Shown: positions 1-33,963 of the stretch, piece after piece
How the letters are laid out: every line of letters starts with the position of its first letter
How positions within the stretch are numbered: the stretch's first letter is position 1
DNA from: Candidatus Bathyarchaeota archaeon
GTDB lineage: Archaea > Thermoproteota > Bathyarchaeia > TCS64
DNA: 64,000 bases
Reading direction: 5' to 3'
Assembly: GCA_963771885.1 (NCBI GenBank)
Contig: CAVYVF010000002.1
Span: 1 to 64,000 of the forward strand
The notes under the pieces: generated by a model
What the model saw: the letters and a program-made list of their open reading frames with translations, nothing else
Database searches by the model: none
What the model was told of the DNA's origin: nothing
Program-made: the position numbers and the translations under genes

Positions 1-545
1 ATCGAATCCAAGAGCCTCACTTACGTAGAGGCTGGCCTGGTGACTAGCGTTGGTACTGTGTCTGGGTTTATTGGCTGTATTGCCATGGGGGTGTTTAGCG
101 ACAAGATAAAAAAGCGCAAACTGCCGATCATCGTGTCTCTTACCTTTACACGGTCTTTTTGGGATGCTTTATTTTCCTGCCTTCTGGATTGCCGGTTGCT
201 TTCTACGCGTTGAACTGGTTTCTCTTGACCTTTTTCCTTAGTTTCTGGGTGCTCTTTCCCAGTATGGTTGGTGAGGTCGTGTCGCGGGCTAAGGCTACGA
301 TTGGTTTCGGGGTTATGAATGGGTTGATGATGATCATCACGAGTTTAGCTACTCCCCTTTATGGTGCCTTGGTTGACTTGACGGGTAGTTTTTTCATTCC
401 GACGTTGATCAGTCTAGGTCTAAGTGTTTTTGCCTTGATTATTCTTAATAGGTCTCTATCGGAGACTTACGGGCTTGCTCCCGGCGATCATTTTTTTTAC
501 GATCCGTTCTTTGAGGAAGCGCGCGCGAGCAGTTCTTTAATCTAA
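1..545 (+). CDS. MFS transporter, C-terminal part (5' end outside window; frameshift near 145)
   Basis: Frame 1 reads ...GCIAMGVFSDKIKKRKLPII (MFS motif A-like) and continues in ORF 159..545 with hydrophobic helices and PLYGALVDLTGSF. Confidence 0.75.
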
Positions 546-637
546 ATGTATCCGTTTTTTAGAAGTTTTGTATACTGCATCCTCAACCAGGTGTGAACTT
601 TTATATTATTTAGAAACACTCCTATTGGGAGAATAAT

Positions 638-2182
638 ATGATAAAAGAGACGAAGCCAACAAAAGCAAATAAGAGACCAATACTTGCACTCATCATAATC
701 GTAGCCCTCGCAGGCGCCTCATACTACGCATACCAGACACTAAACCCCCCAATCAAACCAACAAACTGGCCAACCCAAACCTGGACCACCGCCACAGCGG
801 AGGCAAGCGGCTTCGACTCACAGAAACTAGTCGAAGCCATCACCTCAATGAAAGTTACCCTCAACATACACAGCCTCACCATCACAGGCATCGACGGCGG
901 ACTCTTCCTAGACGCCTACTTCTACCCATATGACGGCTCCACCTACCACGACTATGCCTCCGTGACAAAAAGCGTGACGACGACCCTCATCGGAATAGCC
1001 GCCGACCAGGGAAAACTCGACCTGGATAAACCGATCCTATCCTACTTCCCCGACACAACGGTGGCAAACCGCGACGCCCGCAAGGAGAAGGTCACCGTGC
1101 GCCAGCTAGCAGGAATGACCTCCGGATTCACATGCGTCGACTACCCCACTGAGGCGACGCTCGAAGAGATGATGCTGACCCCAGACTGGGTACAGTTCGC
1201 ACTAGATCGCCCAATGGCAGCCGAACCGGGCACACGCTTCACCTACGACAGCCTGGGAATGCACCTGCTCTCAGCCATCCTCGAAGTAGCCACCGGAGTG
1301 ACGGAGCTAGAGTACGCCAAACAGGTCCTATTCACCCCGCTGGGTATAACCGAGGTCTGCTGGCCATCCGACCCGCAGGGCCACACTAAGGGCTGGGGGG
1401 ACCTCTGCCTCCACCCACGCGACGCCGCCAAAGTTGGCCTACTCTTTAGCCATGGAGGCGAATGGGATGGCAAACAAGTAGTGTCGCAGTCGTGGGTATC
1501 CGAGGCGACTAAGAAGCACGTCTCGACGAATCGCGGCCAAGATTACGGCTATGGTTGGTGGGTATCGCCATCCAGTGAAGCCATTCCCTATTATAGCGCC
1601 GAGGGCAGGGGCGGTCAATACGTCAGGGTCTACCCGACGCTGAGCATCGTCATTTCGGCGACTGGGGGCGGAGTCAGCATGGGCGACATAGGTCCTAAGC
1701 TAGCGGAGGCGATTACAGAGGGTGGAAAGGCTCTGCCAGCCAACCTGATTGGGGCTGAGAGGCTAAGAAGTGCGGTGGTTGAGGTCGGTGTTAAACCTCA
1801 ACCGGTAGCTGTAGCTGAGTTACCGGGTTTGGCGGGCGTCGTGTCAGGTAAAACCTACGTCTTCGACTCGAATATTCTGGGTTTGAAATCTATGGTACTT
1901 GAGTTTGACGCTGGCTCTGAGGCGTTCTTTAAACTGGAAAAAGTGGGGGAGCTAGAGCCACGCTTCGGGGTCGTTGGCCTCGACGGAGTCTACAGGATGA
2001 GCAGTAGCGGTCAGCCTGCGGCTGCAAAGGGAAGCTGGTCGAGCCACAACATCTTTACCTTGGACTATAATGAGGGGCCTGGCCTAAACTATCTTCAAAT
2101 AGAGTTCATCTTTGAGGATGACGTGGTTCGGTTCAATGTTCAGGGATTCGGTGAAATCATCGGAAGACTCTCGGATACATAA
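638..2182 (+). CDS. Serine hydrolase, beta-lactamase class C/AmpC-like, N-terminal membrane anchor
   Basis: SVTK (SxxK) motif, PGTRFTYDS, YGYGWW, AEGRGGQ. Confidence 0.9.
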   Translation: MIKETKPTKANKRPILALIIIVALAGASYYAYQTLNPPIKPTNWPTQTWTTATAEASGFDSQKLVEAITSMKVTLNIHSLTITGIDGGLFLDAYFYPYDGSTYHDYASVTKSVTTTLIGIAADQGKLDLDKPILSYFPDTTVANRDARKEKVTVRQLAGMTSGFTCVDYPTEATLEEMMLTPDWVQFALDRPMAAEPGTRFTYDSLGMHLLSAILEVATGVTELEYAKQVLFTPLGITEVCWPSDPQGHTKGWGDLCLHPRDAAKVGLLFSHGGEWDGKQVVSQSWVSEATKKHVSTNRGQDYGYGWWVSPSSEAIPYYSAEGRGGQYVRVYPTLSIVISATGGGVSMGDIGPKLAEAITEGGKALPANLIGAERLRSAVVEVGVKPQPVAVAELPGLAGVVSGKTYVFDSNILGLKSMVLEFDAGSEAFFKLEKVGELEPRFGVVGLDGVYRMSSSGQPAAAKGSWSSHNIFTLDYNEGPGLNYLQIEFIFEDDVVRFNVQGFGEIIGRLSDT

Positions 2183-2192
2183 TACACATTTG

Positions 2193-2828
2193 TTACACAG
2201 GCGAGCGTTTGCGCGCGCCGCCTTTAATCAGGTACCATATGAAAATAGCCTGCCAAACATAGTACCCATAAGTTGAGACGCGTTCACTTAATCCAACGTA
2301 AGGCGTAGGCTCCCCCATCACCAAACCGGGGATGGTCAGAAACACTGTTGCGCCCGGCACAAGAAGCACAAGCAGAGCAGCGAACGAATAGATGCGAAGC
2401 CAGCCACGAGACGAAAACGCAACAATGCAAACCGCCAACAAGACGAAGACGACCCCAACACCCGCCAGGATGATGTGCATGGTGTCGGTGAATGTCGCCT
2501 CAACGCCCCGCATGTGCATCGGGTAGATGTTCCAGAGCACCAGGCCGTTCACCGCGTTTCCGACGAACATCAAGGCGGTCAAACGAATAGCCCTGCGCCC
2601 CTCAGCGGAGAACCAAACTCCCACAGAGAACGCGAGCACAAGAAAACTACTGAAGGTGTAGACCGGGACCACGAAGCCGCTTGTCGGCGCACCGATTGCA
2701 AACAATTCACTGATAGCCTGAGCTGTGAAACTGTAGCCGGGGTACAGCAAACCCGCCGCTACATCCGTGGCCGCAAATACCAGGGAAGCGACGATGCCGC
2801 AGACGAGTAGAAAGATTCCCCTTTTCAC
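2193..2828 (-). CDS. DUF998-family membrane protein
   Basis: YPGYSFTAQAISELFAIGAP, DTMHIIL and GLSERV patterns; multiple TM helices. Confidence 0.8.
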   Translation of the reverse strand: MKRGIFLLVCGIVASLVFAATDVAAGLLYPGYSFTAQAISELFAIGAPTSGFVVPVYTFSSFLVLAFSVGVWFSAEGRRAIRLTALMFVGNAVNGLVLWNIYPMHMRGVEATFTDTMHIILAGVGVVFVLLAVCIVAFSSRGWLRIYSFAALLVLLVPGATVFLTIPGLVMGEPTPYVGLSERVSTYGYYVWQAIFIWYLIKGGARKRSPV

Positions 2829-2837
2829 TGATTTCCA

Positions 2838-3284
2838 TCATAATTCTTCCAATGGTCCGTCTTCGATTAGTTCCGCTTTTTGACTCGACCACTTAAGCGA
2901 AAACCAGACAATGAGAACCGACGCCATTAAAGCGGCTGTCTGCAATAATAAGAGATACGCGGAAGCTATTGTTATTTGTGACAATCCATACGCAACCCCT
3001 GAGAGATTAAACACCGTGAAGACTAATCCTAACAAAATATTAACCCGACGGCTCGATGAATCACTCAGCGTAAGGGATAGAAAAGCCATTACGAAGGGAA
3101 TTAACATAACCATCGCACCACCCAGCAGCATGTAAGGGACTAATTGTGAGGGAAAGGTAGAAATCATCTGACCGAGCCCTCCCCCAACATCCAAACTATT
3201 CAGCGTCAAGAGAAGCAGGAGGGCGAAATCCATGAACATCCACAGAATGGAAACCTTAACCTTCAAAGAGAAAGCCTCCATCAC
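2838..3284 (-). CDS. Four-TM membrane protein (DUF6326-like)
   Basis: KVKVSILWMF ... IPFVMAFLSLTL ... RRVNILLG pattern. Confidence 0.6.
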   Translation of the reverse strand: MMEAFSLKVKVSILWMFMDFALLLLLTLNSLDVGGGLGQMISTFPSQLVPYMLLGGAMVMLIPFVMAFLSLTLSDSSSRRVNILLGLVFTVFNLSGVAYGLSQITIASAYLLLLQTAALMASVLIVWFSLKWSSQKAELIEDGPLEEL

Positions 3285-3571
3285 GAAATCCCTCCGAGAA
3301 GATTTCCCGCGCTTTCACCTAACTTTGCATTCATCATCGCCTGTTTCAATACCATACTCAAATTTGATCCACTTCGCCAATTTTCCATGAAAGCCCCCAG
3401 GAATATAACATCCACGAATAAGCCATTGATAAATTTCACAGCCGAGTATTAATCAAAATAATTGAAACACAAGACTAGCACTTGAAACAGAGTTGAACCG
3501 AATCAAAGACTATGAAAAATAACAATCGAGTGTTCGAGCCCCTTTAATTCAATTTACCCCTAATCGACTCC

Positions 3572-3860
3572 ATGAGCAAGTTGAAACCAAAGAGAACCGA
3601 CGATGATCACACCTTCTCCATCGAGATGGCCTCTAAAGCCCACCTCGGCAAACTCGAAGTATCCGATGGCCAAGGGCCAGGTACTCATCGAAGGTGAGCT
3701 CGGTCGAGGCATCTCGGTGGAACTCGTCGAGGGCATAATGCTCCAGATAACAGGCGAGAATGGCGTTTTCCGAAGAGATCTCTCGGAGGGAGACCTGAAT
3801 GGTGTCCTAAGGTCCTCGAATACCTTACACATTAAAAGTCAGGTGGATGAACATCTTTGA
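3572..3860 (+). CDS. Small hypothetical protein (frameshift near 3675)
   Basis: ATG 3572 MSKLKPKRTDDDHTFSIEMASKAHLGKLEVS joins VLIEGELG...MLQITGENGVFRRDL of ORF 3603..3860. Confidence 0.55.
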
Positions 3861-4328
3861 CGGGTTCCGTGGCTTCGAAGGGGAGAGGCGATACGGTCCC
3901 GGAGTCACATGTCGACCTTCTAAGAAGCACAGTGGATGTCGTGCTAACAACGATAACCCCCGAAGGTTACCCACAGAGCACACTTGTCTGGTGCAGCCTC
4001 GATGCTCTCGGTCCTCATGAACACTGGCAAGGGTTATCAAAAGGAGAGAAACATGAGAAGAAACCCAAACGTCTCCGTTTTCGCCTTCGACCTAAATAAC
4101 CACCTCCACTGTGTCGAAATACAGGGCGACGCAGAACTCATAGAAGAGGGAGCCAACGAGCACCTAAACAGCCTCTCCCAAGCCTACACGGGTAAAGCCG
4201 ACTTCTACAGAGACGTCATGCCGGAGTTAGCGGGTAAAGAAACCAGAGTCATCATCAGGTTGAAGCCGAAAAGGGTCAGAGTTAGGGATGGACCCATGGC
4301 TCGGACACCAGTAAACAAGCAATTATGA
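3857..4328 (+). CDS. PPOX-class F420-dependent oxidoreductase (frameshift near 4005)
   Basis: LTTITPEGYPQSTLVW in ORF 3857 continues as MNTGKGYQKERNMRRNPNVSV...VEIQG in ORF 3984. Confidence 0.85.
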
Positions 4329-4340
4329 TGAGTAGATAAT

Positions 4341-5170
4341 TCAGCGTTTACTATCCTTATCTCTAGGTCGCCCCATAGTCCAGAACCAGGATAGCTCTTT
4401 CGCCTGCTCCCAATAATATTCGAATAGATCCCTACACCAGCCATGGAAAACAGGATCCCTTGATCGATATCCCAGCACGTCGACCTCGCTATCTCTCTTA
4501 GGGAGGGCGAGGACAGCCACCTCCTTCTCGGTCATGTACATCCTCACCTTGACCTCGTCAAGGTATCTAATTTGCAGGTATCCCTTCCTCCACTGCTCCT
4601 CGAAGAAGTCGAGGTGCTCCCTCGGCGTCTCCCTCATCACTTCCTCGGGAGGAGTATAGTACATGGGCTCGATAGCCCTCAACTTCACCCCCCTCTTCAA
4701 TTGATTGATCGAGTCGTTTGCATCTCTGGGGCTAGACATTCTGCCCGGCGAGATAAACCACTCATACTCCTCAGAAGCTCTCCTCGCCCTCGCGATGTTC
4801 GCGACAACGTCGAGCAGTTCTGTCGTCCTCTCATTGTCTTTGAGCTCCCCGAGCCTGGAGACGAATTGTGGTGGCAGCCAGTGTGTGGAGTGGCTGAGGA
4901 TGTAGTCCCTCTGTTGTGTGAGGAATTCGAATGGGGCTAAAAGTTTGAGTGCGTTTACTCCAAGGGAGGTTAGGACGTAGTCGCCGGTGGGTCTCTTTCG
5001 ACGAGTGAAATCTGGACTAGCCTCGCTATGTTTCGTGAAGTTCCTTGTGCGGTGAATTCGAGTTTGTTGGCTATCTGTGTGAGGTTCATCGGGCCTTGCT
5101 CGATTGCCATCAAGATCCCGAGTCGATCATTGTTTGATAACTCGAATAGGAGATTGCACAGGGGCTCCAA
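4341..5170 (-). CDS. ArsR-like wHTH / DUF1724-type transcriptional regulator (two frameshifts)
   Basis: N-term LLFELSNNDRLGIL...LTQIANKL...SRNIARL HTH; C-term GYRSRDPVFHGWCRDLFEYYWEQA. Confidence 0.75.
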
Positions 5171-5344
5171 GTATTGTTCTATGTTATTGTACTGGTTAAG
5201 AGATAAGATAGTTTGGGGCCAACCCTAAGCCAGATGAGCGTTTGCTGATTGGGTTCTTAATCGTCGACGTTGATTTTTCACACTTCAAAGTTCGGCTCTG
5301 TTAATAGCAGTTTAGCATCCGCTTTTCTCGGAGCTGTGATTAGA

Positions 5345-5779
5345 TTGGAAGAAGGTTTGGAGAAAAGCAGGGTGTTGGTAGCATTCTATTCAAAAGGTGG
5401 AAATACTCGCTCAGTGGCTGAAAGAGTCGCGAAAACCTCAACGCAGACATCGATGAAATCAAGATGGCGAGACGATAAGGTGAATCTTTAGGGAGGATCC
5501 GAGTGCGTACGAATTGGTGATAGTTGGCACACCTGTCAATGGGTTTTCTCCCTCGAAGCCTGTGGCAGACTATCTAAAGAGGAATAGCGGAAAATTCAGG
5601 AAACTATCCACTTACTTAACTTATAGCCTATGGCCTGCGGGAACCCTGAAGAGAATGAGTGAGCTAGCCTCTGCGGTGCCCGTGGCTTCGGCGGTATTCA
5701 AGTCAAGGGATATCAAGCTAGGTCAATCGACGATGGGCTCAATGCTTACATTGCCTCGATGAAAAATATGCTTGGTTGA
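5345..5779 (+). CDS. Flavodoxin-like protein (several frameshifts)
   Basis: VAFYSKGGNTRSVAE FMN loop, then VIVGTPV in the next frame. Confidence 0.65.
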
Positions 5780-5789
5780 GTGATCTGAA

Positions 5790-6345
5790 ATGAATCTGAT
5801 TCAGATTGTCGGGATCGTCTTCGGGGTAATTGTGGGAGTGGTTGTTCTATCATTCCTGGTGATCAACTTGGACTTCGGCCAGCTACCTTGCATCTGGCAG
5901 TGAAGCTCTTACACCGACTGGAACACCCGTTGGACGCGCTCTTGTTGTCTATAGCCCGGGGTTATCAGGAGCTGCCAAAGAGTCGGCACAAAAGATTGCC
6001 TCAAGCCTCGTGGGAAGGGGCTACAGAGTCGACCTAGTGGGTGTTCGGAGCTCAGCCGCCAGCTCCAGCACAGACTACGATGTGGTCATTGTAGGCGGCC
6101 CAGTATACTTTGGAAAACTCAGCGCATCAACCGCTGACTACCTCGGGAAGTTCGCCCGGAAAACCGACGCGAAACTCGGAGTATTCGGCACGACTGGAAC
6201 AGACAAATTCATGGAAGTCGACTTCAACACAGTCACAGAGCAGGTATCCATCCTAAGAGGTGGAGAAACGGTTCAGATCAAGTTAATCCTGACGAATAAC
6301 GTTGACGCTGACTGCGCCGCTCTGGTAAACTCTACACTAGGATAA
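5790..6345 (+). CDS. Membrane-anchored flavodoxin-domain protein (frameshift near 5875)
   Basis: N-terminal TM MNLIQIVGIVFGVIVG, then ALVVYSPGLSG and YDVVIVGGPVYFG. Confidence 0.7.
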
Positions 6346-6367
6346 CGTCGACTGGGAGGAGCCACCG

Positions 6368-6961
6368 ATGATTGAGGGTAAAAGTCAACTCGAAGTGCTC
6401 CCTACGGGGCAACGCGCGGGACTAGCGCTTATCATCCCCAATCTTCTTACATCCATTCGAGCCATATCCACCAGCATCCTGTTTATCACCCTAGTTGAAG
6501 GTGGCTGGGGTTTCCCCATCTACGCTCTGGCCTGCCTTACTGACGTGTTGGATGGTTTTTTTGCGCGTCGTCTGCGGATAGAGAGTGAGTTCGGGGGAAT
6601 GCTAGATGCGTCGGTTGACTTTGTACTGATCTTCTCGACTTCACTATATCTGGTTCTGGATGGGTTGGTCTCTGCGTGGTTCTTGTTTTTAATTTTATTT
6701 GCGTTCACAAAGTTCCTGCTCTTTCGGGGGAAACCGGTTTATGATCCCTTTGGGAAACACATAGGCACCGTGCTTTTTGTAAGCCTCGGAACAGTTTTGT
6801 TCTTCAGGGCTCCATTAGTAGCCAACTGGGCCATATCCATTGCATCATGCTATGTTCTAATCGCTACTACAATAAGCATCGGCGCGCGCTGGAGACGCTT
6901 GGTATCGGACTATCACGAATGTTGGCCCGGAATTTGGCTTAAGCAGTCACCAGAAATATGA
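6368..6961 (+). CDS. CDP-alcohol phosphatidyltransferase family
   Basis: IPNLLTSIR and TDVLDGFFARR...SEFGGMLDASVD signature. Confidence 0.9.
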   Translation: MIEGKSQLEVLPTGQRAGLALIIPNLLTSIRAISTSILFITLVEGGWGFPIYALACLTDVLDGFFARRLRIESEFGGMLDASVDFVLIFSTSLYLVLDGLVSAWFLFLILFAFTKFLLFRGKPVYDPFGKHIGTVLFVSLGTVLFFRAPLVANWAISIASCYVLIATTISIGARWRRLVSDYHECWPGIWLKQSPEI

Positions 6962-7177
6962 TGGACACTGTGTGAGATGTATTAAAAACAAGTAATCCTA
7001 TCACACTCGTTTAAAATCCTTAAAATAATTTACATATTGTAGTCGAGAAGACCTCGGAGAAACTAGGTGAATATGGAATTGGCCAAAGTCCCTATCCGCG
7101 CGCGTAGATGTGAGCGGTAAAAGTGTGCTGCAAATAATCTTATCTCCACTTCGCGCTAAAATGATATGCACGCCTAG

Positions 7178-7588
7178 AGGTGCCTAGAGACGTTAAGTGA
7201 CTATCTCGCACCCGACTATTTTAGTAATCGAGTACTATTCTTCACCATCCTCGCCGCAGTCCTAATCATAGGCATATTATGGAAGAAGCTCAAGCCAAGC
7301 AGTTGGAGGATCGAAGAATTCTCCTTCAATCGCTCATTATCCACCGATATTCCTCCTAAAAAGAGCGCCATCAGATGCAGGATATGCAGAGCCTCATGGA
7401 TTCACCCAGAGAATAGGTTAAGTGGGGGCATAAATTGGCTCGGTGAAGATAGTATAAAGTGGAAGTGCCCGGGATGCGGTCACGTTGTTGTCTGGGAGAG
7501 GCCGCTTCAGTTTCCGCATAGTAATTATGGGCCGAATGAAGACATCGGGAGTCTATCTAGGGTACTCCCTGAGGAGTATGAAGGCTAG
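7178..7588 (+). CDS. TM + zinc-ribbon protein lacking a canonical start codon (not in ORF track)
   Basis: Stop-free frame DYFSNRVLFFTILAAVLIIGILWKK...CRIC...WKCPGCGH...EYEG*; GAGGTG SD-like at 7177. Confidence 0.55.
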   Translation, partial: RCLETLSDYLAPDYFSNRVLFFTILAAVLIIGILWKKLKPSSWRIEEFSFNRSLSTDIPPKKSAIRCRICRASWIHPENRLSGGINWLGEDSIKWKCPGCGHVVVWERPLQFPHSNYGPNEDIGSLSRVLPEEYEG

Positions 7589-7649
7589 GCGTGCGCGCTT
7601 CAGATAGGGGGGCATCACTGTATTTCTGGAGCTATTGTGCGCGCGACCG

Positions 7650-8030
7650 CTATCCTTCTACCTTTGCCTCAAACCCGCCATATGCCATACGTTTCACATC
7701 GAATGGCATCGGAACATCCTTGTACACATTTGCTTGCTTACTCATTTCCTCCATTACTCTTGCGTTGACCTCATCGCGGTGTTTCTTAGACTTGAAAACG
7801 ATAAACGAAAACCAAACAGTTTCACCGGGCTTCGCTTTTATCAACTCGGTAAATCCAAGTGGCTTAGACCCCCCCATTTCCTTTGGATGAAGGTCGTCAC
7901 CAATACACTCAATGTATTGAAGTGCGCCAAATTTCATCCAGGTTTCCTTTCCCATCTCTGCCATCTTCTGGTATTCTTCGACCTTGTCTTTCTGAACGAC
8001 AAGTACGAAACCGTCTACGTATTTCGTCAA
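7650..8030 (-). CDS. DUF1428 (YbaA-like) protein
   Basis: YVDGFVLVV, GALQYIEC, ETVWFSFI, MPFDVKRMAYGGF. Confidence 0.92.
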   Translation of the reverse strand: MTKYVDGFVLVVQKDKVEEYQKMAEMGKETWMKFGALQYIECIGDDLHPKEMGGSKPLGFTELIKAKPGETVWFSFIVFKSKKHRDEVNARVMEEMSKQANVYKDVPMPFDVKRMAYGGFEAKVEG

Positions 8031-8242
8031 AATACTTCGCCTCATGGACCTGATTTGAACGAATTCTTATAAACTCGACTTCGCAATCGCCGTTATTTCC
8101 CAACGATATCGAGTCTCGCTGTGCTTCTCATTTCTGATGGCGAGACGGTGCGCGCGAATATGTGCATATCCTATTCAATAACCTCCCTCCTCACACGAAC
8201 TCGGTCTCATTTATCAACCCAACTCATCTGAAAGACTATGCC

Positions 8243-8512
8243 ATGATGCGGAAGCTGGACGTTATCGAATTCGTTGAAGACCTTCGAGATTCTACAGGCG
8301 CTCGGCTGAATCTAAACCTCAACGTATTCGCAACGCCCCCACCCCCATATCCCGACATCGAGAGCGACGGATATAAGCTTAGGATTGATCCGACCGTGCT
8401 CAGCTCTGAGGACGAGGAGAGGATAAGGGACTTCGCTGAGAGAAGGGGTTTGACGACCGAAGACTACTGGAACGATTGGGGAAGATACCTGACAATTTGG
8501 AAGAAGAAGTAA
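8243..8512 (+). CDS. Hypothetical protein
   Basis: Protein-like 89-aa ORF MMRKLDVIEF...YLTIWKKK. Confidence 0.55.
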   Translation: MMRKLDVIEFVEDLRDSTGARLNLNLNVFATPPPPYPDIESDGYKLRIDPTVLSSEDEERIRDFAERRGLTTEDYWNDWGRYLTIWKKK

Positions 8513-8633
8513 CCAAGATATCAGGGTGACTTGAGCTTTTCCAGCGCATGGAAAGGTGCGCACAGTTTTACCGTTAGCTGAAAGCAATAATCTTATCATA
8601 GATTCACGGTAACTAAACTCCGGTGATCAAGGT

Positions 8634-9050
8634 ATGGAGTCAAAAAACGTTGAAGCGGTAAAACGGTTCTATGGCTACGTTGACTCGGGGAAACCAGAGG
8701 CACTAGGAACCTTATTTGCCCCGGAGGCCAAAGTATTCTACGAGTCCGGAGACCCTGTTCAGCTCGACGATATGATTCCAGTTATCAAGACTTTCTACGC
8801 CTCCTTTCCCGATTTTAAACACGTAATCGAGGACATCTTCGAGGTTGAGGACAAGGTTGTAGCCAGGTTGTCATTTACTGGCACCTTCAGGAATGTCTTC
8901 ATGGGTTTTGAACCAGACGGCTCCGTTTTCAGGTATGCTGGTGTCCATATCTTCCAGTTTAGTGAGGGTAGAATATCCACTGTCTGGGCCGTTGAGGATG
9001 AGTTAGGGTTGATGTCGCAGCTGGGTTTAGAACTCAAGCCTAAGAATTAA
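8634..9050 (+). CDS. SnoaL-like ester cyclase / NTF2-fold protein
   Basis: FYASFPDFKHVIEDIF...DKVVARL.FTGT...D.LGLMSQLG. Confidence 0.9.
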   Translation: MESKNVEAVKRFYGYVDSGKPEALGTLFAPEAKVFYESGDPVQLDDMIPVIKTFYASFPDFKHVIEDIFEVEDKVVARLSFTGTFRNVFMGFEPDGSVFRYAGVHIFQFSEGRISTVWAVEDELGLMSQLGLELKPKN

Positions 9051-9225
9051 TGAATCGGATGCGCGCGGGGTGGGGTCAACCCTTTGAATGGCGCGCGCTA
9101 TATAACAACATGCAAACCTATTCAATCTTCTACAACCGTACGAGGGTCAGGTGAAGATAGATCTAAGTGGGCTCGACCTTAGTTTCCAGAAAAGCAGGTG
9201 ACAAGAAGAGCACTCTCGATGGCGG

Positions 9226-9684
9226 CTATTTTTCCAATTCAAACACCTCGAGGCAGAAATCCGAGGCGTCACTCCGATATTTTTCAATCTTAAAATTCTT
9301 CACCGCAGGATTATTCTTCTTAGCGGCGTCGGGGAACTTCCTCCACCAAGCATAACACATGTTCCTCGCCTGATCGTGGGTGAGCCCGCTCTCACGCATC
9401 CCAGCGTAACAGGGACACGTATGGTTGATGAGTGTAACCTTGCCGCCCTCAACCTTCACGTCGGCTTCCCAGCCACCTGACCGCTGGCTTGCGAGAAGCT
9501 GCTTTGAGTAGGCTTCTGCGCCCAGCTTGGTCCACTCCGCGTAGGCTGCTGCGCTTTCCTCCCCCATGTCGGCTACTGCGTCGTACAGGCTTTTTTCACC
9601 GATTTTACCCATGAGTATTCTGGCGAGTTGGCCGTACATCGCGAAGCCGTTCTTGGCTGCGTTTGCGAGTTCTTTTTGATCCAT
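9226..9684 (-). CDS. Hypothetical protein, V4R/ATC-hydrolase-like Cys-containing fold
   Basis: HTCP, MC and DFC Cys pattern; family uncertain. Confidence 0.55.
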   Translation of the reverse strand: MDQKELANAAKNGFAMYGQLARILMGKIGEKSLYDAVADMGEESAAAYAEWTKLGAEAYSKQLLASQRSGGWEADVKVEGGKVTLINHTCPCYAGMRESGLTHDQARNMCYAWWRKFPDAAKKNNPAVKNFKIEKYRSDASDFCLEVFELEK

Positions 9685-9790
9685 GCACTACCCCATTTAC
9701 ATTTGTCGCAGATTTATTATTAAAAACCAGTCAGTGTATCTCCATAGCCTTATCCTCAGTTCAGCCTGATACTAAGCAAGTGAATCATAA

Positions 9791-9856
9791 TTGAATGAAC
9801 ATCGAACATTCGTACTAATACCGGGTATGTGGCACGAAGGCTGGAGCTGCTCGCGC
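9791..9856 (+). pseudogene. N-terminal stub of an alpha/beta hydrolase
   Basis: TTG 9791 MNEHRTFVLIPGMWHEGWSC resembles TFVLVHGAWHGGWCW; similarity stops at cgcgc 9852-9856. Confidence 0.65.
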
Positions 9857-9952
9857 ATCCGGTTAAGTGAAAGTTGATAAGAATGCTTGAATTAGTTTAA
9901 AATTGAGGAACATTCCCTGGATAACACAAAAAAGTTACCAGATTTAATACTC

Positions 9953-10408
9953 ATGCTTAATGATGCCACTGCTAGAGAGATACAAGTCTCAATGCAGTAC
10001 ATGCTGCAGCACGCACTCTATAGTGGAGCAGGGCCGCTCGTCGAGCGCAGCCAAATCGATTCAAAGGCGGGCAAGTTTATCGCGAGCCACTCGCCCTTCT
10101 TCTTTCCAGGTGACAGCCTCAAGAAGATCGCGATTGCGGAGATGAGGCACGCGGAGGCAATTGCTGAACGAGTCTCGTTCCTAGGTGGTGCGCCTTTGAC
10201 AACGGCAAATTCTTTCAAGATAGGTCAGACGGTGAATGAGATTCTTGAGCTTGATAAGAGGGAGGAGGAAGGCGCGATTAAGCTCTACGAACAGATTGTT
10301 GATGTGGCTAAAAGCGTGGGAGATGAGGCGACTGAGAGGCTTTTTGAGAAAATACTTCTCGAAGAGAGGGGGCATCATCTCATCTTTACAGGTTTGATTA
10401 ATCGATAG
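9953..10408 (+). CDS. Ferritin-like / bacterioferritin-family protein
   Basis: EIQVSMQY, EMRHAEAIAER, EEGAIKLY, EERGHH di-iron motifs. Confidence 0.9.
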   Translation: MLNDATAREIQVSMQYMLQHALYSGAGPLVERSQIDSKAGKFIASHSPFFFPGDSLKKIAIAEMRHAEAIAERVSFLGGAPLTTANSFKIGQTVNEILELDKREEEGAIKLYEQIVDVAKSVGDEATERLFEKILLEERGHHLIFTGLINR

Positions 10409-10451
10409 ATGCACCTATCTGGTGATTACGCGCGTTGGTCAATGTAACTAG

Positions 10452-10620
10452 CACACCCCGCTCGGTACTATTGGATACTGGAATCCCTTCTCCATGACCC
10501 CTACGTTCAGTGGACTGGAGATGTGGTATCAGGTGCACCAAGATCATCAAGGTAAAAGGATAGCAACGCAGGCGGCCTCCCTGTTGATTAATCATTAATT
10601 TTATGCAATTAGGCCACCGC
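10452..10620 (+). pseudogene. Internal fragment of a RimJ/RimL-type GNAT acetyltransferase
   Basis: HTPLGTIGYW...LEMWYQVHQDHQGKRIATQAASLLINH*F; in-frame stops; bounded by CG runs. Confidence 0.7.
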
Positions 10621-10780
10621 TCGCGCATGCACAACATAAGAATCAACATGAAGCGCGCGCAGAGTATATTGACCCTTGATACTGGAATGTATGAACACAT
10701 CGTTAAATCTTACCTCTGAACCATAAACCCAATCTATTTACGGGTTGATTCCATAAGGGAAAATAGCAGCGGGTCCAGGT

Positions 10781-11218
10781 TTGCCAACTGAAGAAGACGA
10801 GAAGATAGCCAGCAAACTCAAAGGAAACACCCTGAGAGTCTACTGGGAGATACAAAAATCAGATACCGAAACCTTGGGCGTACGTGAAATACAGAGGCGA
10901 CTAAAATTCTCAAGCCCCGCATTAGCTTCATATCACATAACAAAACTGGAGGAGATGGGGCTCGTGAAGAAGAAGGATGGTGACTACACATTAGCCAAGG
11001 AGATCAACGTGGGCATCTTCACGGAATTCGTGAAACTGGGAACCTTCAGATTCCCCAGATTTCTAATGTACTCCACATTCTTCACCCTAATGCTAATACT
11101 ATTCATAGCCCAGCTAGACGAGTTCAACAAAAACAGCCTCTACGCGTTAACCGCGTTAGTCACAGCCGCTACCATACTATGGTACGAGACCGTAAAGGTC
11201 TGGCGACAGAAGCCGTGA
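10781..11218 (+). CDS. Membrane-anchored wHTH transcriptional regulator
   Basis: LKGNTLRVYW...GVREIQRRLKFSSPALASYHITKLEEMGLV plus two C-terminal TM helices. Confidence 0.85.
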   Translation: MPTEEDEKIASKLKGNTLRVYWEIQKSDTETLGVREIQRRLKFSSPALASYHITKLEEMGLVKKKDGDYTLAKEINVGIFTEFVKLGTFRFPRFLMYSTFFTLMLILFIAQLDEFNKNSLYALTALVTAATILWYETVKVWRQKP

Positions 11219-11221
11219 GCA

Positions 11222-11256
11222 AGTGTACAACTTCTTGAACAGAGTGTACAATTACA
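11222..11256 (+). promoter_or_regulatory. Putative tandem operator upstream of the DUF4382 gene
   Basis: AGTGTACAA at 11222 and 11243 (21-bp period) with TGAACA between. Confidence 0.45.
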
Positions 11257-11314
11257 TTTGATTAAGTTCACCCACACGGGATACTATCTCGTGAAACTTG
11301 GAGAGCGATAATGA

Positions 11315-11881
11315 ATGGCGTTTGAACCCCGCAAAATAATAGTATACGCTTTCATCGGATGCCTAGCCGCCTTGTTGGTGGCTTCATCAATCGGTTTACT
11401 CCCCGGCTTCTTCAGACCGGCCACCGCGACGGGTACGCTGTCGGTTCTAGTTACAGATGCCCCTGTGCCTGACCTGTTAAACCTCAACTTGACGATAAGC
11501 AGCTTCATGGTACAGAACGGCACCGGAAGCTGGGTCTCAGTCCCAATTAATGGAGGCGTTCAGTACTTCGACCTGCTGAAGCTTCAAAATGTTACGAAGG
11601 CTCTGGCGCTCGGAAGCCTACCCGTCGGCAACTTTTCAAAGATTAGGCTACAGATTGATTCGGCGAACGCTACGCTAAGTGATGGGACCAAGATCGACCT
11701 AAGAGTTCCATCCGGCCACATCGACCTCCAGGTTATGTTCGAGATAATGTCGGGAAAGACGACCCGCCTCGTAATTGATATTGTGGTGGACAAAATTCAG
11801 ATAGCTGAATCGGGGTACTCTGGGAAACCGGCTAACCTGAACCCGCAATTCAGGTTCGTCGTTGTTCCACCGACGCAATGA
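11315..11881 (+). CDS. DUF4382-family exported protein
   Basis: N-terminal TM, GTLSVLVTDAP, FDLLKLQN, LRVPSG. Confidence 0.85.
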   Translation: MAFEPRKIIVYAFIGCLAALLVASSIGLLPGFFRPATATGTLSVLVTDAPVPDLLNLNLTISSFMVQNGTGSWVSVPINGGVQYFDLLKLQNVTKALALGSLPVGNFSKIRLQIDSANATLSDGTKIDLRVPSGHIDLQVMFEIMSGKTTRLVIDIVVDKIQIAESGYSGKPANLNPQFRFVVVPPTQ

Positions 11882-11925
11882 TTTCGACGTGTAGATAATT
11901 TATGTACTTGATATGGGTGAGAGGT

Positions 11926-12066
11926 TTGAGTTCTGAGGGGATTGAGGGACTAGTTAACGAGTTGAAGGCTAAGGAGGCGCGGATAAGGAGGGTTCGCCAG
12001 CGATTAGAGGAGAATCTTAGGAAAAAGATTTGGCTGGATTGGCAGAAGATGTCCAAGTCCTCCTAG
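11926..12066 (+). CDS. Small basic coiled-coil protein (46 aa, not in ORF track)
   Basis: TTG start after GGTGAGAGG; MSSEGIEGLVNELKAKEARIRRVRQRLEENLRKKIWLDWQKMSKSS. Confidence 0.4.
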   Translation: MSSEGIEGLVNELKAKEARIRRVRQRLEENLRKKIWLDWQKMSKSS

Positions 12067-12276
12067 AGTCCTTACCCAAACTAGCGCGTGCCTTATCTAC
12101 GAGTGTGTTCACTGCGGCTTCCGCCTCGACTCCCTTGGCCAGAAACCGCTCTTCTTCAGGCAGGTCTCCTGGTCGCATACCGGCCAGCCGCGCGCGCGGG
12201 GGTGTGCTCGCTCTGGTGAGATAATTTTATCGCGCGCGCAAGTTATTAAAACTGAGGCATGGCAGTATTCCTAGGA

Positions 12277-13959
12277 ATGCCTATGGCTCTACCGACGAAG
12301 ATAGAGATCGCCCAGAGCGCCAAGCTCAAGCCGATCACGGAGATCGCCGCGGGTCTCGGCCTCAGCGCCGACGACATCGAGATGTACGGCAAGTACAAGG
12401 CGAAGATACGCCCCGAGGTCTACATCCGCAATAAGGACAAGCCCGACGGCAAGCTCATCATAGTCACCGCCATCACCCCCACCAAGTTCGGGGAGGGTAA
12501 GACCACGATGAGCATCGGCCTCGCCGAAGCCCTCGGCAAACTGGGCAAGAGGAACATAGTCGTCCTCCGCCAGCCCAGCCTCGGCCCCGTCTTCGGCGTC
12601 AAGGGCGGCGCCTGCGGAGCCGGCTACGCCCAGGTCCTCCCCATGGAGGACATAAACGTCCACTTCACAGGCGATCTGCACGCCATCACCTGCGCCCACG
12701 ACCTGCTCACCAGCATAATGGAGAACCACATCAACAGGGGCAACGAGCTGGGCATAAACCTCCACGACATCATGTGGAAACGCGTCATAGACATTGAGAG
12801 CAGGACGCTCCGCAAGATCGTCGTCGGCATAGGCGGCAAGAACAACGGCATACCCTACGAGAGCGGCTTCGAGATCACAACCGCCTCCGAGATCGCCGCC
12901 ATCCACGCCATCAGCAGCGACTTCATGGACCTCAAGCGCCGCATGGCCGCAATCACAGTCGCATACGACAAGGAGGGCAAGCCAGTCACGGCGGGCCAGC
13001 TCCAGGTCGTCGGCGCTATGGCGATCCTCATGAAGGACGCGGTGAAGCCCAACCTCATCCAGACCATCGAGGGCACGCCCGGCATCATCCACGGCGGCCC
13101 ATTCGCCAACATCGCCCACGGCTGCCCCAGCCTCATCGCCATAAAGACGGCGCAGAAGCTCACCGACTACGTCGTCCTCGAGCCCGGCTTCGGCGCAGAC
13201 CTCGGCATGGAGAAGTTCTGCAACATCGCCAGCCGCGCCGGCGGACTCAAGCCAAGCGTCGCCGTCATCGTCGCCACAATCAAGGCCCTCAAGCGCCACG
13301 GCGGAACCAAGTACAAGGACATCGACAAGCCCAGCGCCGAGAACGTCAAGAAGGGCCTCCCCATCCTCGCCAAAGAGGTCGAGAACGCCAAAAAGTTCGG
13401 CCTCCACCCAGTCGTCTGCATGAACCACTTCCTCAACGACGCGCAGGAGGAGATCGACATAGTCATGAAGTGGGCGGAGGACAACGGCGTCCCCGCCGCC
13501 TTCACCGACACCGTCCTCAAGGGCGGCGCAGGAGGCACAGAGCTCGCCAACCTCGTCCTCAAGGAGCTCGAGAAGCCCAACAACTTCCACTATCTCTACC
13601 CACTCGAGATGCCCGTCGAGGAGAAGATCAGGACCATCGCCAAGGAGATCTACGGAGTCGCCGACATACGCCTCACCGACGACGCGAGGAAGGCGCTGAA
13701 GCAGATAGAGAAGCTCGGATTCGACAAGCTCCCAATCTGCATGGCGAAGACGCCCCTAAGCCTCACCGACAACGAGGACCTCCAGGGACTCCCACCTGCC
13801 GGCTACATACTCCCCATCGTCAACCTCAAGCCCAGCACCGGCGTAGGCTTCATCGTCGCCTACTGCGGCGACATCAGCACCATGCCCGGCGAGCCCACGC
13901 ACCCCGCCAGCGAAGAGATGGACATCGACGAGAACGGCATCATAAAGGGGCTTGCTTAG
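12277..13959 (+). CDS. fhs: Formate--tetrahydrofolate ligase
   Basis: TAITPTKFGEGKTT, HFTGDLHAI, HGGPFANIAHG, GFGADLG. Confidence 0.97.
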   Translation: MPMALPTKIEIAQSAKLKPITEIAAGLGLSADDIEMYGKYKAKIRPEVYIRNKDKPDGKLIIVTAITPTKFGEGKTTMSIGLAEALGKLGKRNIVVLRQPSLGPVFGVKGGACGAGYAQVLPMEDINVHFTGDLHAITCAHDLLTSIMENHINRGNELGINLHDIMWKRVIDIESRTLRKIVVGIGGKNNGIPYESGFEITTASEIAAIHAISSDFMDLKRRMAAITVAYDKEGKPVTAGQLQVVGAMAILMKDAVKPNLIQTIEGTPGIIHGGPFANIAHGCPSLIAIKTAQKLTDYVVLEPGFGADLGMEKFCNIASRAGGLKPSVAVIVATIKALKRHGGTKYKDIDKPSAENVKKGLPILAKEVENAKKFGLHPVVCMNHFLNDAQEEIDIVMKWAEDNGVPAAFTDTVLKGGAGGTELANLVLKELEKPNNFHYLYPLEMPVEEKIRTIAKEIYGVADIRLTDDARKALKQIEKLGFDKLPICMAKTPLSLTDNEDLQGLPPAGYILPIVNLKPSTGVGFIVAYCGDISTMPGEPTHPASEEMDIDENGIIKGLA

Positions 13960-13961
13960 AA

Positions 13962-14793
13962 TTGGCGATAATCCTCGACGGCAAGGAGACCTCCGCCAAG
14001 ATCGTGGAGGAGATCAAGGCTGAGGTCGCCGCCCTCAAGGCGAAGGGCGTCACGCCGACCCTCGCACTCATCCTCATCGGGGCCGATCCCGGATTCCACC
14101 CGCTACGTCAACCTCAAGGTCAAGCGCGCCGACGAGGCCGGCATCGCCACACAACTCCACAGCTTCGAGACCGCGACAACAGAGCAGATCGTACAGCTCA
14201 TCGAAAAACTCAACGCCGACCCCAAGGTCCACGGCATAATGGTCCAGCTCCCCGCCCCCGGCGTCAACGAGGGAAAGATAGTAGAAGCCATCTCACCCGA
14301 GAAGGACGTGGACGCCCTCAGCCCAGTGACCTTCGGCAAAATCGTCCTCGGGGAAAAGTCCTTCCTCCCCGCCGGCATCGAGGCCGTCATGGAGCTCCTC
14401 AGACGCTACAACGTCGAAACAGAGGGCAAGCACTGGGTCGTCGCAGGGCTCCCAAGCTGGCTCGGCAAGCCACTGGTGGCTATGCTCCTCAACAAGAAGG
14501 TACAGGTGACGGCGTTCGCCGCCGACGACCCCCACCTCCCCGAGCTCGTCAAGCTAGCCGACGTCCTCTGCATCGAGATCCACAAGAAGTGGACGGTCAC
14601 CGCCGACATGGTGAAGAAGGGTATCGTCGTCATCGACAACGGCAACAGCTACGAGGGCAAGAAAGTCTTCGGCGACGTCGACTACGACGGCGTGTCACCC
14701 CTCGCGTCGGCGATCACACCCGTCCCCGGCGGAGTAGGCCCACTACTCATCACGATGCTCCTCAAGAACACAGTGAAGGCAGCCACCTCCTAG
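13962..14793 (+). CDS. folD: Methylene-THF dehydrogenase/cyclohydrolase (frameshift near 14095)
   Basis: MAIILDGK, RYVNLK, VHGIMVQLP, EKDVD, GDVD, ITPVPGGVGP. Confidence 0.93.
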
Positions 14794-14841
14794 AAACGAC
14801 GAGCATCTTTTTTTCACGGAAAACCAATCGGAGACTCGGCA

Positions 14842-16845: not shown

Positions 16846-17039
16846 GTACCATGGGTTGCCTCCCGAGGAATTAATACCTCTCAAAGACCTCCGAGAAAGT
16901 TGACCAACACGTGGTGGGCTATATGCAAGTGTAGCTCGCGCGACATCGAGACTCGCACACATTTTCAACCATCTCCCCCCTTACCCGCCATCAAGGATTT
17001 TAAACAGGAGCGCCACCCCCATGTTACGAGGCGCGCCCT

Positions 17040-17426
17040 TTGGCCAAGTTTGATTCACGCAACGCCCGCCGCATGATGCAGCGCATGGGAATGCAGATGC
17101 AGGAGTACGGTAACGTCACCCGGGTCATCCTACAGAGCCCCGGTAAGGAGATAATCATAGACCAGCCCGCAGTGACGAGCATAAACGTCCAGGGGCAGAA
17201 GATATTCCAGATAACAGGCGGCAAGGTCACCGAGAGGGCGGCACAGGCGGGAGTCGCAGCCCCGGGCACGGCTCCAGTTGTGGAGAAGCCAGCGATACAG
17301 GTCCCCGAGGAGGACGTGCTCCTAGTCGCCCAGCAGGCCAAGGTCTCGATGGAGAAGGCGAGGGAGACCCTCATCAAGTGTGAGGGCGACCTCGCTAGGG
17401 CCATCCTCATGCTCCAGACAAGTTAG
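17040..17426 (+). CDS. nac: Nascent polypeptide-associated complex protein
   Basis: RRMMQRMGM...EEDVLLVAQQAKVSMEKAR..L...GDLARAI. Confidence 0.95.
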   Translation: MAKFDSRNARRMMQRMGMQMQEYGNVTRVILQSPGKEIIIDQPAVTSINVQGQKIFQITGGKVTERAAQAGVAAPGTAPVVEKPAIQVPEEDVLLVAQQAKVSMEKARETLIKCEGDLARAILMLQTS

Positions 17427-17436
17427 AGGTTATACC

Positions 17437-27907: not shown

Positions 27908-27922
27908 GATGGTTCACGATTC

Positions 27923-33949: not shown

Positions 33950-33963
33950 AATCACCCATCTCC

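Follow-up and report, generated by a model that had tools for sequence, protein, structure and literature searches.

Results

CG runs in the window

The DNA analysed here is the first 64,000 nucleotides (nt) of contig CAVYVF010000002.1 in assembly GCA_963771885.1, from a Candidatus Bathyarchaeota archaeon, and we refer to this whole stretch as the window. Short runs of strictly alternating C and G lie along it and are our main subject. The window is G000:C2:1-64000, where G000 denotes a 2.46-Mb metagenome-assembled genome of 23 contigs with a completeness of 92% and a contamination of 6.7%. We define a run as a maximal alternating C/G stretch and use at least 8 nt as the main threshold. Twelve such runs lie in the window, eight of them before 12240 (Table 1), at exactly the positions that the initial annotation of this DNA had listed. 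Its estimate that chance would give about two is also sound: in 100 dinucleotide-preserving shuffles GCGCGCGC occurred 2.15 times on average and at most 6 times, and none of the 100 reached the 12 copies observed. Seven shorter runs had been proposed as well. Five of these exist (7593, 7639, 8150, 9061 and a 6-nt run at 10429), but the letters at 9852 and 10622 do not form alternating runs of 6 nt or more. Four 7-mers occur in the GC-rich part of the window (18396, 19547, 44979 and 59015). The statement that no run lies inside the body of a housekeeping gene holds at the 8-nt threshold, with the qualification that the run at 6882 falls within an accessory open reading frame (ORF) for a CDP-alcohol phosphatidyltransferase; this run is conserved in a second copy of the region on contig C3, and no breakpoint was observed there.

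Runs were also said to bracket one-gene units, and Pfam supports the hydrolase, DUF1428, SnoaL, ferritin-like and regulator plus DUF4382 units; the Zn-ribbon frame (7178-7588) has two CxxC pairs but lacks an ATG, GTG or TTG start. The units of window 1-12239 sit on both strands. To their left, the start of the contig truncates an MFS transporter gene, of which window 1-545 holds the C-terminal part; compared with an intact homologue in G016:C20, this remnant is frameshifted from frame 1 to frame 3 near 150-210. Run 519-527 lies about 40-60 nt beyond the natural end of this remnant. Other runs touch gene ends directly: 2211-2218 falls within the last codons of a DUF998 ORF (2193-2828, minus strand), and the stop codon of ORF 48260-49699 ends in the first G of run 49699-49706.

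Table 1. Alternating CG runs, gene modules and end-joining genes; positions are those of the window unless a contig is named
Feature	Position	Strand	Remarks
Run (GC)4G, 9 nt	519-527		Left edge of hydrolase unit
Run (GC)4, 8 nt	2211-2218		25 nt past right end of hydrolase block
Run (GC)4, 8 nt	6882-6889		Inside CDP-alcohol phosphatidyltransferase ORF 6368-6961
Run (CG)4, 8 nt	7097-7104		28 nt ahead of Zn-ribbon block
Pair of short runs, 7593 (6 nt) and 7639 (7 nt)	7593-7645		40 nt apart, right end of Zn-ribbon block
Run, 7 nt	8150-8156		Upstream of DUF1428 gene
Run pair, 9061 (7 nt) and 9091-9098 (8 nt)	9061-9098		23 unique nt between, after SnoaL
Run (GC)4, 8 nt	10653-10660		Between ferritin-like unit and regulator plus DUF4382 unit
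Run pair, 12189-12198 (10 nt) and 12231-12239 (9 nt)	12189-12239		32 unique nt between
Run (CG)4C, 9 nt	28232-28240		Island after tRNA 26625-26706
Run (GC)5, 10 nt	30172-30181		Island after tRNA 26625-26706
Run (CG)4C, 9 nt	33273-33281		At end of homology to G002 (33271) and G013 (33248)
Run (GC)4, 8 nt	49699-49706		DNA common to G003 at 95%
Beta-lactamase-family serine hydrolase	638-2182	+	Pfam PF00144, 2.3e-36; homologous block 522-2186
Zn-ribbon open frame	7178-7588	+	Two CxxC pairs; homologous block 7132-7589
DUF1428	7650-8045	-	Pfam
SnoaL	8634-9050		Pfam
Ferritin-like	9953-10408		Pfam
Helix-turn-helix regulator	10781-11218		Pfam
DUF4382	11315-11881		Pfam
AcnX small and large subunits and most of DUF2284	33580-35848		2269 nt; replaced by (CG)5 in G003
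LigD_Prim-Pol	C23:381922-382791	-
Ku	C23:380622-381593	-
ATP ligase fused to LigD_N 3'-phosphoesterase	C23:379234-380625	-

Borders between segments of different history

When window 1-18000 was used as a DNA query against 30 relatives, homology to at least eight genomes of the genus started at 12239, the last base of run 12231-12239. This run abuts the conserved fhs promoter AAGTTATTAAAA and marks the border between accessory and core DNA, which is where the initial annotation had seen core sequence resume. All eight relatives' loci that were fetched share the promoter and have other genes upstream of it; the 200 nt of upstream sequence examined contain no run in any of them. Window 1-14000 was also compared with unscaffolded Logan contigs from four unrelated public metagenomes, in which uncovered stretches are uninformative. 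Contigs from two of the metagenomes (X2 and X4) begin matching the window at 12240, and the units 548-2186, 7130-7515 and 9275-9778 occur with unlike flanks; homology to an X3 contig starts at 548, and X3 also covers 7130-7515. One X4 contig joins window 8084 to 10301 through GGCGCGCGC, which is weak support, as its short side spans just 30 nt at a depth of 2.8.

Copies elsewhere in G000 break off at similar places. C3:21297-30524 is an 89% copy of window 1-9162, in which a 38-nt deletion abuts run 2211-2218. The hydrolase block 522-2186 has a 93% copy at C6:12359-14024, in another context and absent from the allelic contig C5; homology between the window and C6 begins right after a CG run, with unrelated DNA to the left. 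The Zn-ribbon block 7132-7589 has a 96% copy at C2:496236-496691 with no runs at its edges. Both copies lose homology at, or at most 28 nt from, the runs of the window. Homology to a paralogous stretch of C5 begins 24 nt past run 28232-28240, the G001 match to SnoaL stops at 9048, and in G009 the stretches 9866-10398 and 10784-11267 match separate contigs (C9 and C103). Many small low-GC contigs of G000 match one another or a large contig over 2-7 kb, at 89-97% identity (C3, C5/C6, C10/C20, C14/C15, C17/C18, C7/C8/C9, C12/C13 and C7/C21), and the bin seems to hold accessory regions of two co-binned strain variants.

The association extends beyond the window. Among 115 intergenic endpoints of homology between copies within the bin, 10 lie within 5 nt of a run of at least 7 nt (1.2 expected) and 19 within 30 nt (4.1 expected). 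The contrast in GC content is larger at runs than at random intergenic points (median 0.053 versus 0.036; Mann-Whitney P 6e-8). C2 is syntenic with G013:C1 over 252 kb. Of this span 60.5% aligns, yet only 1 of 23 runs lies in aligned DNA; for intergenic runs the figure is 0 of 20, although 31% of the intergenic DNA aligns. Runs were not nearer to the edges of the G013:C1 blocks than random intergenic points were (1 of 20 within 30 nt, 1.8 expected). At about 77% identity, divergence along this 400-kb sequence is too great for individual joints to be resolved. Altogether, these comparisons support the view that the runs are junctions between DNA segments of different history. Window 1-12239 is most plausibly a mosaic of gene remnants and of gene-sized pieces that were captured or shuffled, with one or two runs at each joint.

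Runs at indel joints

In the related genome G003, contig C157 reads ...CTATGTCT-(CG)5-GCCAAC..., where the window has 2269 nt between the same flanks. The window stretch holds intact genes for the small and large AcnX subunits and the first 131 codons of DUF2284, and there is no CG run at either breakpoint. Because only truncated gene ends remain in G003, its allele is the derived one, in which a 10-nt filler closes a deletion.

We took a census of such differences between G000 and 61 G003 contigs (550 kb, 93-95% identity), accepting collinear indels with at least 50 nt in one allele and at most 40 nt in the other. Eight of the 23 junctions carry a perfect run of at least 7 nt at the joint, and a ninth carries the single-T variant GCGCGTGCG. 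Random 40-nt windows contain a run with a frequency of 0.65% genome-wide and 1.9% when centred on intergenic DNA, which gives P values of 1.4e-12 and 6e-9 for 8 of 23. The short allele of the eight perfect-run joints is in G003 five times and in G000 three times. Replaced lengths span 79-2275 nt at these joints, and the breakpoints often cut genes, AcnX and DUF2284 among others. For example, (CG)7 replaces 112 nt in ORF C22:219619-220119, a net change of -98 that shifts the frame, and GCGCGCGCG replaces about 224 nt in ORF C23:594384-594923; elsewhere CGCGCGC-ACCCTTTTAG-GCGCGC replaces 146 nt and CGCGCGCGC replaces 75 nt of AT-rich spacer. A Cas1 fragment (C23:254634-254867, profile positions 186-265 of 283), the sole Cas1 match in G000, likewise ends exactly at a GCGCGCGCG.

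Strain-variant contigs within the bin give a similar result. Leaving aside repeat-mediated events, there are five indels of at least 500 nt, and in each the short allele carries a run: four of these measure 10, 8, 7 and 6 nt, and the fifth is GCACGCGC. On C10, for instance, (GC)5 joins DNA that lies 2078 nt apart on C20 and cuts ORF C20:11862-12209, and C20 has no run at either edge.

The long alleles bear on whether the runs preceded the joints. At seven of the nine run-bearing G000/G003 joints the long allele has no run at either edge. In one of the other two it has CGCG at an edge and a run inside, and in the last (C22:196615) it shares the run. Because most long alleles are free of runs at their edges and the breakpoints cut genes, the runs were for the most part made at the joint and are mostly not pre-existing sites. 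The initial annotation was thus correct in calling the runs junctions but not in taking them for sites that were there beforehand. The run sits exactly at the joint, can fuse two truncated genes, and arose in both lineages after their split. At seven of the eight joints with a perfect run, one side of the replaced DNA opens with CG, GCG or CGCG, so that 2-4 nt are shared with the run; the opposite side shares 0-2 nt, and the frequency of the CG dinucleotide is 0.079. Judged from these alignments, the run seems to start out from a CG that was already present at one end, and its junction with the other end looks nearly blunt.

Abundance, placement and length

G000 contains 208 runs of at least 8 nt, where Markov models of order 1, 3 and 5 predict 124, 78 and 132. 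Gene bodies were taken from a self-trained, crude ORF caller, on which all ORF and non-ORF counts depend. By these counts 147 of the 208 runs are not fully inside ORFs, though non-ORF DNA makes up 17.3% of the genome; density is 3.5 per 10 kb outside ORFs and 0.30 per 10 kb within them, an eleven-fold difference in which the ORF value is about background. The excess is thus confined to non-coding DNA. There, GCGCGCGC and CGCGCGCG rank first and second among the 65,536 possible 8-mers, and (TA)4, (CA)4 and (GA)4 show no intergenic enrichment.

Lengths are narrowly distributed: 122 runs have 8 nt, 60 have 9, 25 have 10, none has 11-14 and one has 15. These shares (59, 29, 12 and 0.5% for 8, 9, 10 and longer) come close to those of an 8-nt unit extended by chance through its flanking bases, for which hand arithmetic gives about 56, 28, 10 and 5%, and long runs are rarer than predicted. 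A microsatellite growing by slippage was considered and rejected: there is no geometric tail of lengths, other dinucleotide repeats are not expanded and, in the distant genome G101 described below, 7-mers (7) are rarer than 8-mers (27).

Around the 147 non-ORF runs, T precedes and A follows in 45-52% of cases in both registers. No other flanking motif, attC-like conservation or extended palindrome was found around them, and beyond position 1 the base composition is even. In G000 the density of runs is higher where GC is low. Gaps between convergent genes hold 43 of 139 runs with 19% of the intergenic length, and divergent gaps are under-represented. The runs at 9091 and 12231 abut TATA-like boxes, but a role as promoter element was rejected because distances to gene starts spread from 1 to more than 3000 nt and because divergent gaps hold few runs. 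Paired runs as the signature of captured fragments were also set aside. Sixteen pairs lie at most 60 nt apart, compared with 4.6 expected from a genome-wide Poisson model or 26 if runs are confined to intergenic DNA, so that the number is not significant; the spacers are unique in the genome.

Decay and possible reuse

Once formed, runs decay by point mutation. The run at 7097 has become CGCACGCG in copy C3, and that at 33273 has become CGCGCTCGC in G003. In intergenic DNA, single-transition variants of the 8-mers are enriched 3.2-3.7 fold, compared with 0.9 fold for transversion variants. Decay driven by 5-methylcytosine was discarded as a cause, as no C5 methyltransferase family (PF00145) was matched in G000; N4 and N6 methyltransferases were not searched for.

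Some runs may also be used again. On C6 a 2199-nt insert with the hydrolase gene is flanked by GCGCGCGC and GCACGCG, where the empty site on C5 holds one GCACGCGC. Elsewhere on C5 a 595-nt unit is flanked by GCGCGC and CGCGCTCGC. From their sequences, a minority of events (the C5/C6 empty sites and C22:196615) look like recombination between existing runs.

Distribution among relatives and search for an enzyme

All 17 genomes of the genus contain GCGCGCGC, most in 40-512 copies and two in a single copy each. The sister genus has 15 copies, and the other eight genomes of the order have 0-1. The two single-copy members are low in GC (35-37%, in samples of 51 kb and 7 kb), and the sister genus has 61% GC. 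In sampled relatives the runs are 8-10 nt long and fall outside long ORFs in 10 of 12 cases (G014), 5 of 7 (G012) and 6 of 12 (G016). Across 301 genomes of the class, raw counts of 10-mers, which were not corrected for GC content, are high in 15 of 17 genomes of g1, 5 of 5 of g17 and parts of f23, f17, f27 and f30. Runs are present in two single-contig genomes.

One of these is G101, a member of f23 with a single contig of 1.98 Mb and 39% GC. A 220-kb sample of G101:C1 (L118, L126-L135) contains 57 runs of at least 8 nt against 1.3 expected, or about 2.6 per 10 kb, 47 of them outside long ORFs. They take the form of a fixed palindrome TAGCGCGCGCTA, that is (T)A-GCGCGCGC-T(A): A stands at -1 in 45 of 57 runs, T at -2 in 31 of 57 and T at +1 in 43 of 57, and 45 of 57 start with G.

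G000 carries a complete archaeal set of non-homologous end joining (NHEJ) genes in a row at C23:379234-382791, all on the minus strand (Table 1). Among 31 relatives Ku is limited to the family, and it occurs in 73 of the 301 genomes of the class. Of the 31 relatives, 28 have a PolX-like gene, with or without runs. The reverse transcriptase family RVT_1 had no match in 31 genomes, and Prim-Pol had none in 18 genomes of the family. In the 92%-complete G000 we found no match to tyrosine recombinases (PF00589; a control search succeeded in 14 of 14 known genomes) or serine recombinases (PF00239). There was likewise no match in G000 to DDE_Tnp_1 (PF01609) or the Y1 transposases (PF01797), other transposase families not having been searched for. 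Self-BLAST of G000 returned only strain-variant and paralogous blocks of unrelated content, and no repeated element with defined inverted ends.

Discussion

Our work places alternating CG runs at the joints of rearranged DNA in a Bathyarchaeia genome and, for most of the joints that can be compared with a longer allele, dates the run to the joint itself. We think it probable that these (CG)4-5 runs are scars, written into the joint when broken DNA is put back together and sequence is lost, gained or reshuffled. Beyond the statement that the run is written at the joint, the mechanism we infer is as follows. A broken 3' end that stops at a CG dinucleotide would be extended by reiterative addition of CG, either template-free or self-templated; alternatively, a self-annealing (CG)n block might be ligated into the joint. 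Since (CG)n is self-complementary, it can bridge any two ends, and some 8-10 bp of pure G:C would hold them until they are sealed. Captured foreign or displaced fragments would gain a run on each side, producing the one-gene patchwork of window 1-12239, and existing runs could later serve as 8-bp microhomologies for further gain and loss. A more ambitious claim, which we put forward only tentatively and hold to be the less probable one, is that some Bathyarchaeia possess a dedicated break-sealing activity that writes a self-complementary (CG)4-5 linker. This would be a new form of end joining that works without Ku, recombinases or reverse transcriptases, would be the main route by which genes are deleted and foreign gene-sized fragments captured, and would leave at every event a scar that can be counted and dated, from which a genome's history of gene flux could be read.

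Several observations weigh against these proposals. Fifteen of the 23 G000/G003 junctions lack a perfect run: one has the single-T variant, two have partial CG and 12 have nothing CG-like. Among the 11 strain-variant junctions, four indels of 116-137 nt and two repeat-mediated ones have no run. A 2.2-kb gene for a molybdopterin oxidoreductase at 14842-16968, which is variably present among relatives (see below), has only 6-mers near its edges and no run of at least 8 nt there. The strain-variant contigs and the relatives are kin rather than independent samples, and the P values overstate their independence. Seven of nine runs are intact between 89% copies, which is above a naive prediction of decay, and the excess of transition variants could also be explained by selection for the alternation of purine and pyrimidine. 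Moreover, the palindrome of G101 looks more sequence-specific than slippage would make it and is unlike the T-run-A rule of G000; because of this difference we argue for a sequence-defined product rather than loose slippage. The candidate enzymes do not follow the runs either. Ku is found in 0 of 5 genomes of g17, 1 of 10 of f23 and 1 of 15 of f17, all run-rich lineages, as well as in 0 of 6 of f27 and 0 of 7 of f30, and yet in 26 of 44 genomes of the run-poor f26. G101 has no Ku despite 57 runs in 220 kb, and G001, G010 and G018 have Ku and the LigD polymerase yet only 1, 1 and 15 copies of the motif. The Ku/LigD operon and the PolX-like gene thus do not explain the distribution of runs, and no enzyme is tied to them.

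What else could place a short CG palindrome where DNA of different history meets? The runs might be a functional intergenic motif, such as a protein site, a Z-DNA-prone insulator or a HIP1-like selected palindrome, which lies at breakpoints merely because these are intergenic. The eleven-fold intergenic enrichment, the two top-ranking intergenic 8-mers, the bias to convergent gaps (43 of 139 against 19%), the tight palindrome of G101, the enrichment of only those variants that keep the alternation and the retention of 7 of 9 runs in 89% copies all fit such a motif. We nonetheless regard it as unlikely, since none of 20 intergenic runs lies in DNA conserved with G013, runs decay, there is no fixed distance to gene starts and no C5 methyltransferase family, and new deletion joints, some of them frameshifting and inside ORFs, acquire runs. 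Alternatively, existing runs could be fragile. CG repeats can provoke breaks and deletions, and Z-DNA-prone (CG)n runs that break and are repaired by microhomology would account for the 2-4 nt of shared CG on one side of seven of eight joints and for the alleles that share a run. However, a break within a run would leave a run at the edge of the long allele, where seven of nine have none, and the runs at joints (8-14 nt) exceed their 2-4 nt seeds. Z-DNA breakpoints with microhomology repair, also raised in the initial annotation, can therefore be kept for the minority of events at C5/C6 and C22:196615 but not for the majority of joints, which lack an ancestral run at the edge; as a general explanation we give fragility very little weight.

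In a cassette system of integron or pdif type, runs would be pre-existing core sites at which a recombinase or nuclease moves one-gene modules, and the C6 hydrolase module between a GCGCGCGC run and GCACGCG, the single GCACGCGC of the C5 empty site, the 595-nt module on C5 with its GCGCGC and CGCGCTCGC borders, the occurrence of single modules in other contexts and the run in the long allele of C22:196615 are what such a system would leave. This was the explanation preferred in the initial annotation, as an integron-like array with a palindromic recombinase core, and the comparison does not support it: the run is made at the joint, seven of nine long alleles lack runs at their edges, genes are cut, modules lie in mixed orientation with no conserved flank or hairpin, and the recombinase and transposase families PF00589, PF00239, PF01609 and PF01797 have no match in a 92%-complete genome. 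We consider it quite unlikely. A cut-and-paste transposon with GCGC termini that inserts at TA could leave a palindromic footprint upon excision, as the footprint of two inverted ends is a palindrome in Tc1/mariner and IS630 elements, and the (T)A-GCGCGCGC-T(A) flanks of G101 and the T-run-A flanks of G000 are suggestive of this. But the replaced segments are ordinary genes running across the breakpoints, no repeated element with such termini was seen, neither DDE_Tnp_1 nor Y1 is matched in G000, excision would not remove 79-2275 nt of flank, and some joints bring together flanks that adjoin in no ancestor, which makes a footprint very unlikely. Finally, a short spacer in place of kilobases resembles a scaffold gap, the bin holds two strain variants, and no public sequencing run contains over 8% of the words sampled from the window, so that an artefact of assembly, scaffolding or binning has to be weighed. 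We judge it extremely improbable: run lengths vary (8, 9, 10 and 14), runs mutate between copies, the G000 sequence contains zero N, and the feature occurs in many genomes, including the two that consist of a single contig, and at the GGCGCGCGC joint of the Logan contig (weak, with its 30 nt at depth 2.8).

How does a written CG scar compare with known ways of joining DNA ends? The nearest known thing appears, by analogy, to be the addition of filler or N nucleotides at end-joining joints by TdT, Pol mu, Pol lambda or, together with Ku, the bacterial or archaeal LigD polymerase. There, too, a short insert that is not templated by the flanks appears at joints that lose sequence, and G000 encodes LigD Prim-Pol, Ku and a ligase with phosphoesterase side by side. 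Known end-joining fillers are short and either random or copied from nearby DNA, whereas the insert in G000 is stereotyped: alternating CG, self-complementary, 8-10 nt and up to 14. To our knowledge, most archaea lack Ku. NHEJ has been described in archaea, as far as the accessible text of that report goes (PMC4797286). In the part available of a study of human Pol mu, the enzyme carries out dinucleotide expansion on end-joining intermediates in vitro (PMC3592450). Reiterative synthesis from a terminal dinucleotide fits the CG seed at seven of eight joints; the differences are that Pol mu is a eukaryotic PolX studied in vitro, that the PolX-like gene here occurs in 28 of 31 relatives regardless of runs, that no CG product appears in that portion of the study, and that Pol mu is not known to leave scars in chromosomes. 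A member of the reverse transcriptase family in phage defence, DRT3b, performs protein-templated synthesis of poly-(dC-dA), according to the accessible portion of its description (PMC13174585). It resembles the proposed activity in making strictly alternating dinucleotide DNA without a nucleic-acid template. It differs, on the same partial text, in making CA rather than CG and in a product that is not known in a chromosome, and RVT_1 has no match in the 31 genomes here. De novo telomere addition at breaks in ciliates, nematodes and yeast also places a stereotyped repeat onto a broken end regardless of its flank. It caps a new chromosome end, however, whereas the CG runs rejoin both ends, and no reverse transcriptase was found here (RVT_1, 0 of 31).

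The runs can also be set beside known repeated sequences. The highly iterated palindrome HIP1 (GCGATCGC) of cyanobacteria is a lineage-specific, hyper-abundant 8-bp palindrome, and G101 even has a fixed palindrome of 10-12 bp. HIP1 is also abundant inside genes. In the accessible parts of two reports it is tied to orphan methyltransferases, evolutionarily conserved and quasi-periodic (PMC5861425, PMC13756078), and a further HIP1 study, in the part available, does not mention GCGCGC or CGCGCG (PMC4390886). The loose analogy drawn in the initial annotation is therefore good for abundance and palindromy but not for the rest: the CG runs are intergenic, lie in non-conserved DNA and arise de novo at deletion joints, and no C5 methyltransferase family is found in G000. 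With integron attC and Xer/pdif sites the runs share gene-sized units, short repeated bounds, occurrence in several contexts and some empty sites with one copy. Integron arrays have IntI next to the array, attC sites that are imperfect inverted repeats of tens of bases, and mostly promoterless cassettes in one orientation. Here, by contrast, no recombinase family is matched in G000 and there is no attC imperfect hairpin, the site is only an 8-10-nt run made at the joint, breakpoints fall within genes, and the units of window 1-12239 lie on both strands. Repetitive extragenic palindromic (REP) sequences and bacterial interspersed mosaic elements (BIMEs) are imperfect palindromes of 20-40 nt with a conserved tetranucleotide head and an associated Y1 (RAYT) transposase gene. 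The bias of the runs to convergent gaps is REP-like, but G000 has no extended palindrome around them and no match to PF01797. Our literature search, which covered few subscription journals, found neither a description of a CG filler nor one of GCGCGCGC as an iterated palindrome in archaea. As far as we found, a stereotyped, sequence-defined filler at deletion and insertion joints is undescribed in any organism.

Little is known about the template-free rejoining of broken chromosomes in archaea. If our reading is true, there must be an enzyme able to write alternating CG onto DNA ends; it would be of biochemical interest and a possible tool. The runs would then be a natural barcode for illegitimate recombination, by which gene loss, gene capture and the assembly of islands could be counted and dated in uncultured archaea and separated from homologous exchange. 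For annotation, they would explain why accessory islands appear as strings of single-gene modules and truncated genes.

Other features of the window

A tRNA gene lies at 26625-26706 (Rfam, 56 bits), and the Rfam search returned tRNAs only. Homology to G003, G017, G014 and G002 ends at 26693-26709, and a low-GC island (about 26.7-32.2 kb, 42-50% GC) follows the gene in the manner of a classic tRNA-side island. CG runs within it lie at 26839, 28232 and 30172.

The molybdopterin oxidoreductase gene at 14842-16968 (minus strand) is formate-dehydrogenase-like and sits between a folD-like gene and the next core gene. It is absent from nine relatives, whose matches jump from 14783 to about 16987. G003 carries the upstream part at the least; its contig C55 stops inside the gene.

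An element of about 35 nt, CAATAGyCTTATCCTCACTTCCACCTGATAC, is conserved and occurs at window 9744-9767 (plus strand), 27116-27150 (minus) and 27912-27954 (minus), and also within copy C3, in a 118-nt insertion at window 7046. Small plus-strand ORFs of about 170-200 amino acids follow the element at a distance of 10-40 nt, and it is multicopy in at least eight genomes of the genus. Possible roles are a leader or promoter common to a gene family, or a site of attachment type. In G002:C34 (L011, 56000-75500) 12 copies in the same orientation form an array after a tRNA, with no CG runs.

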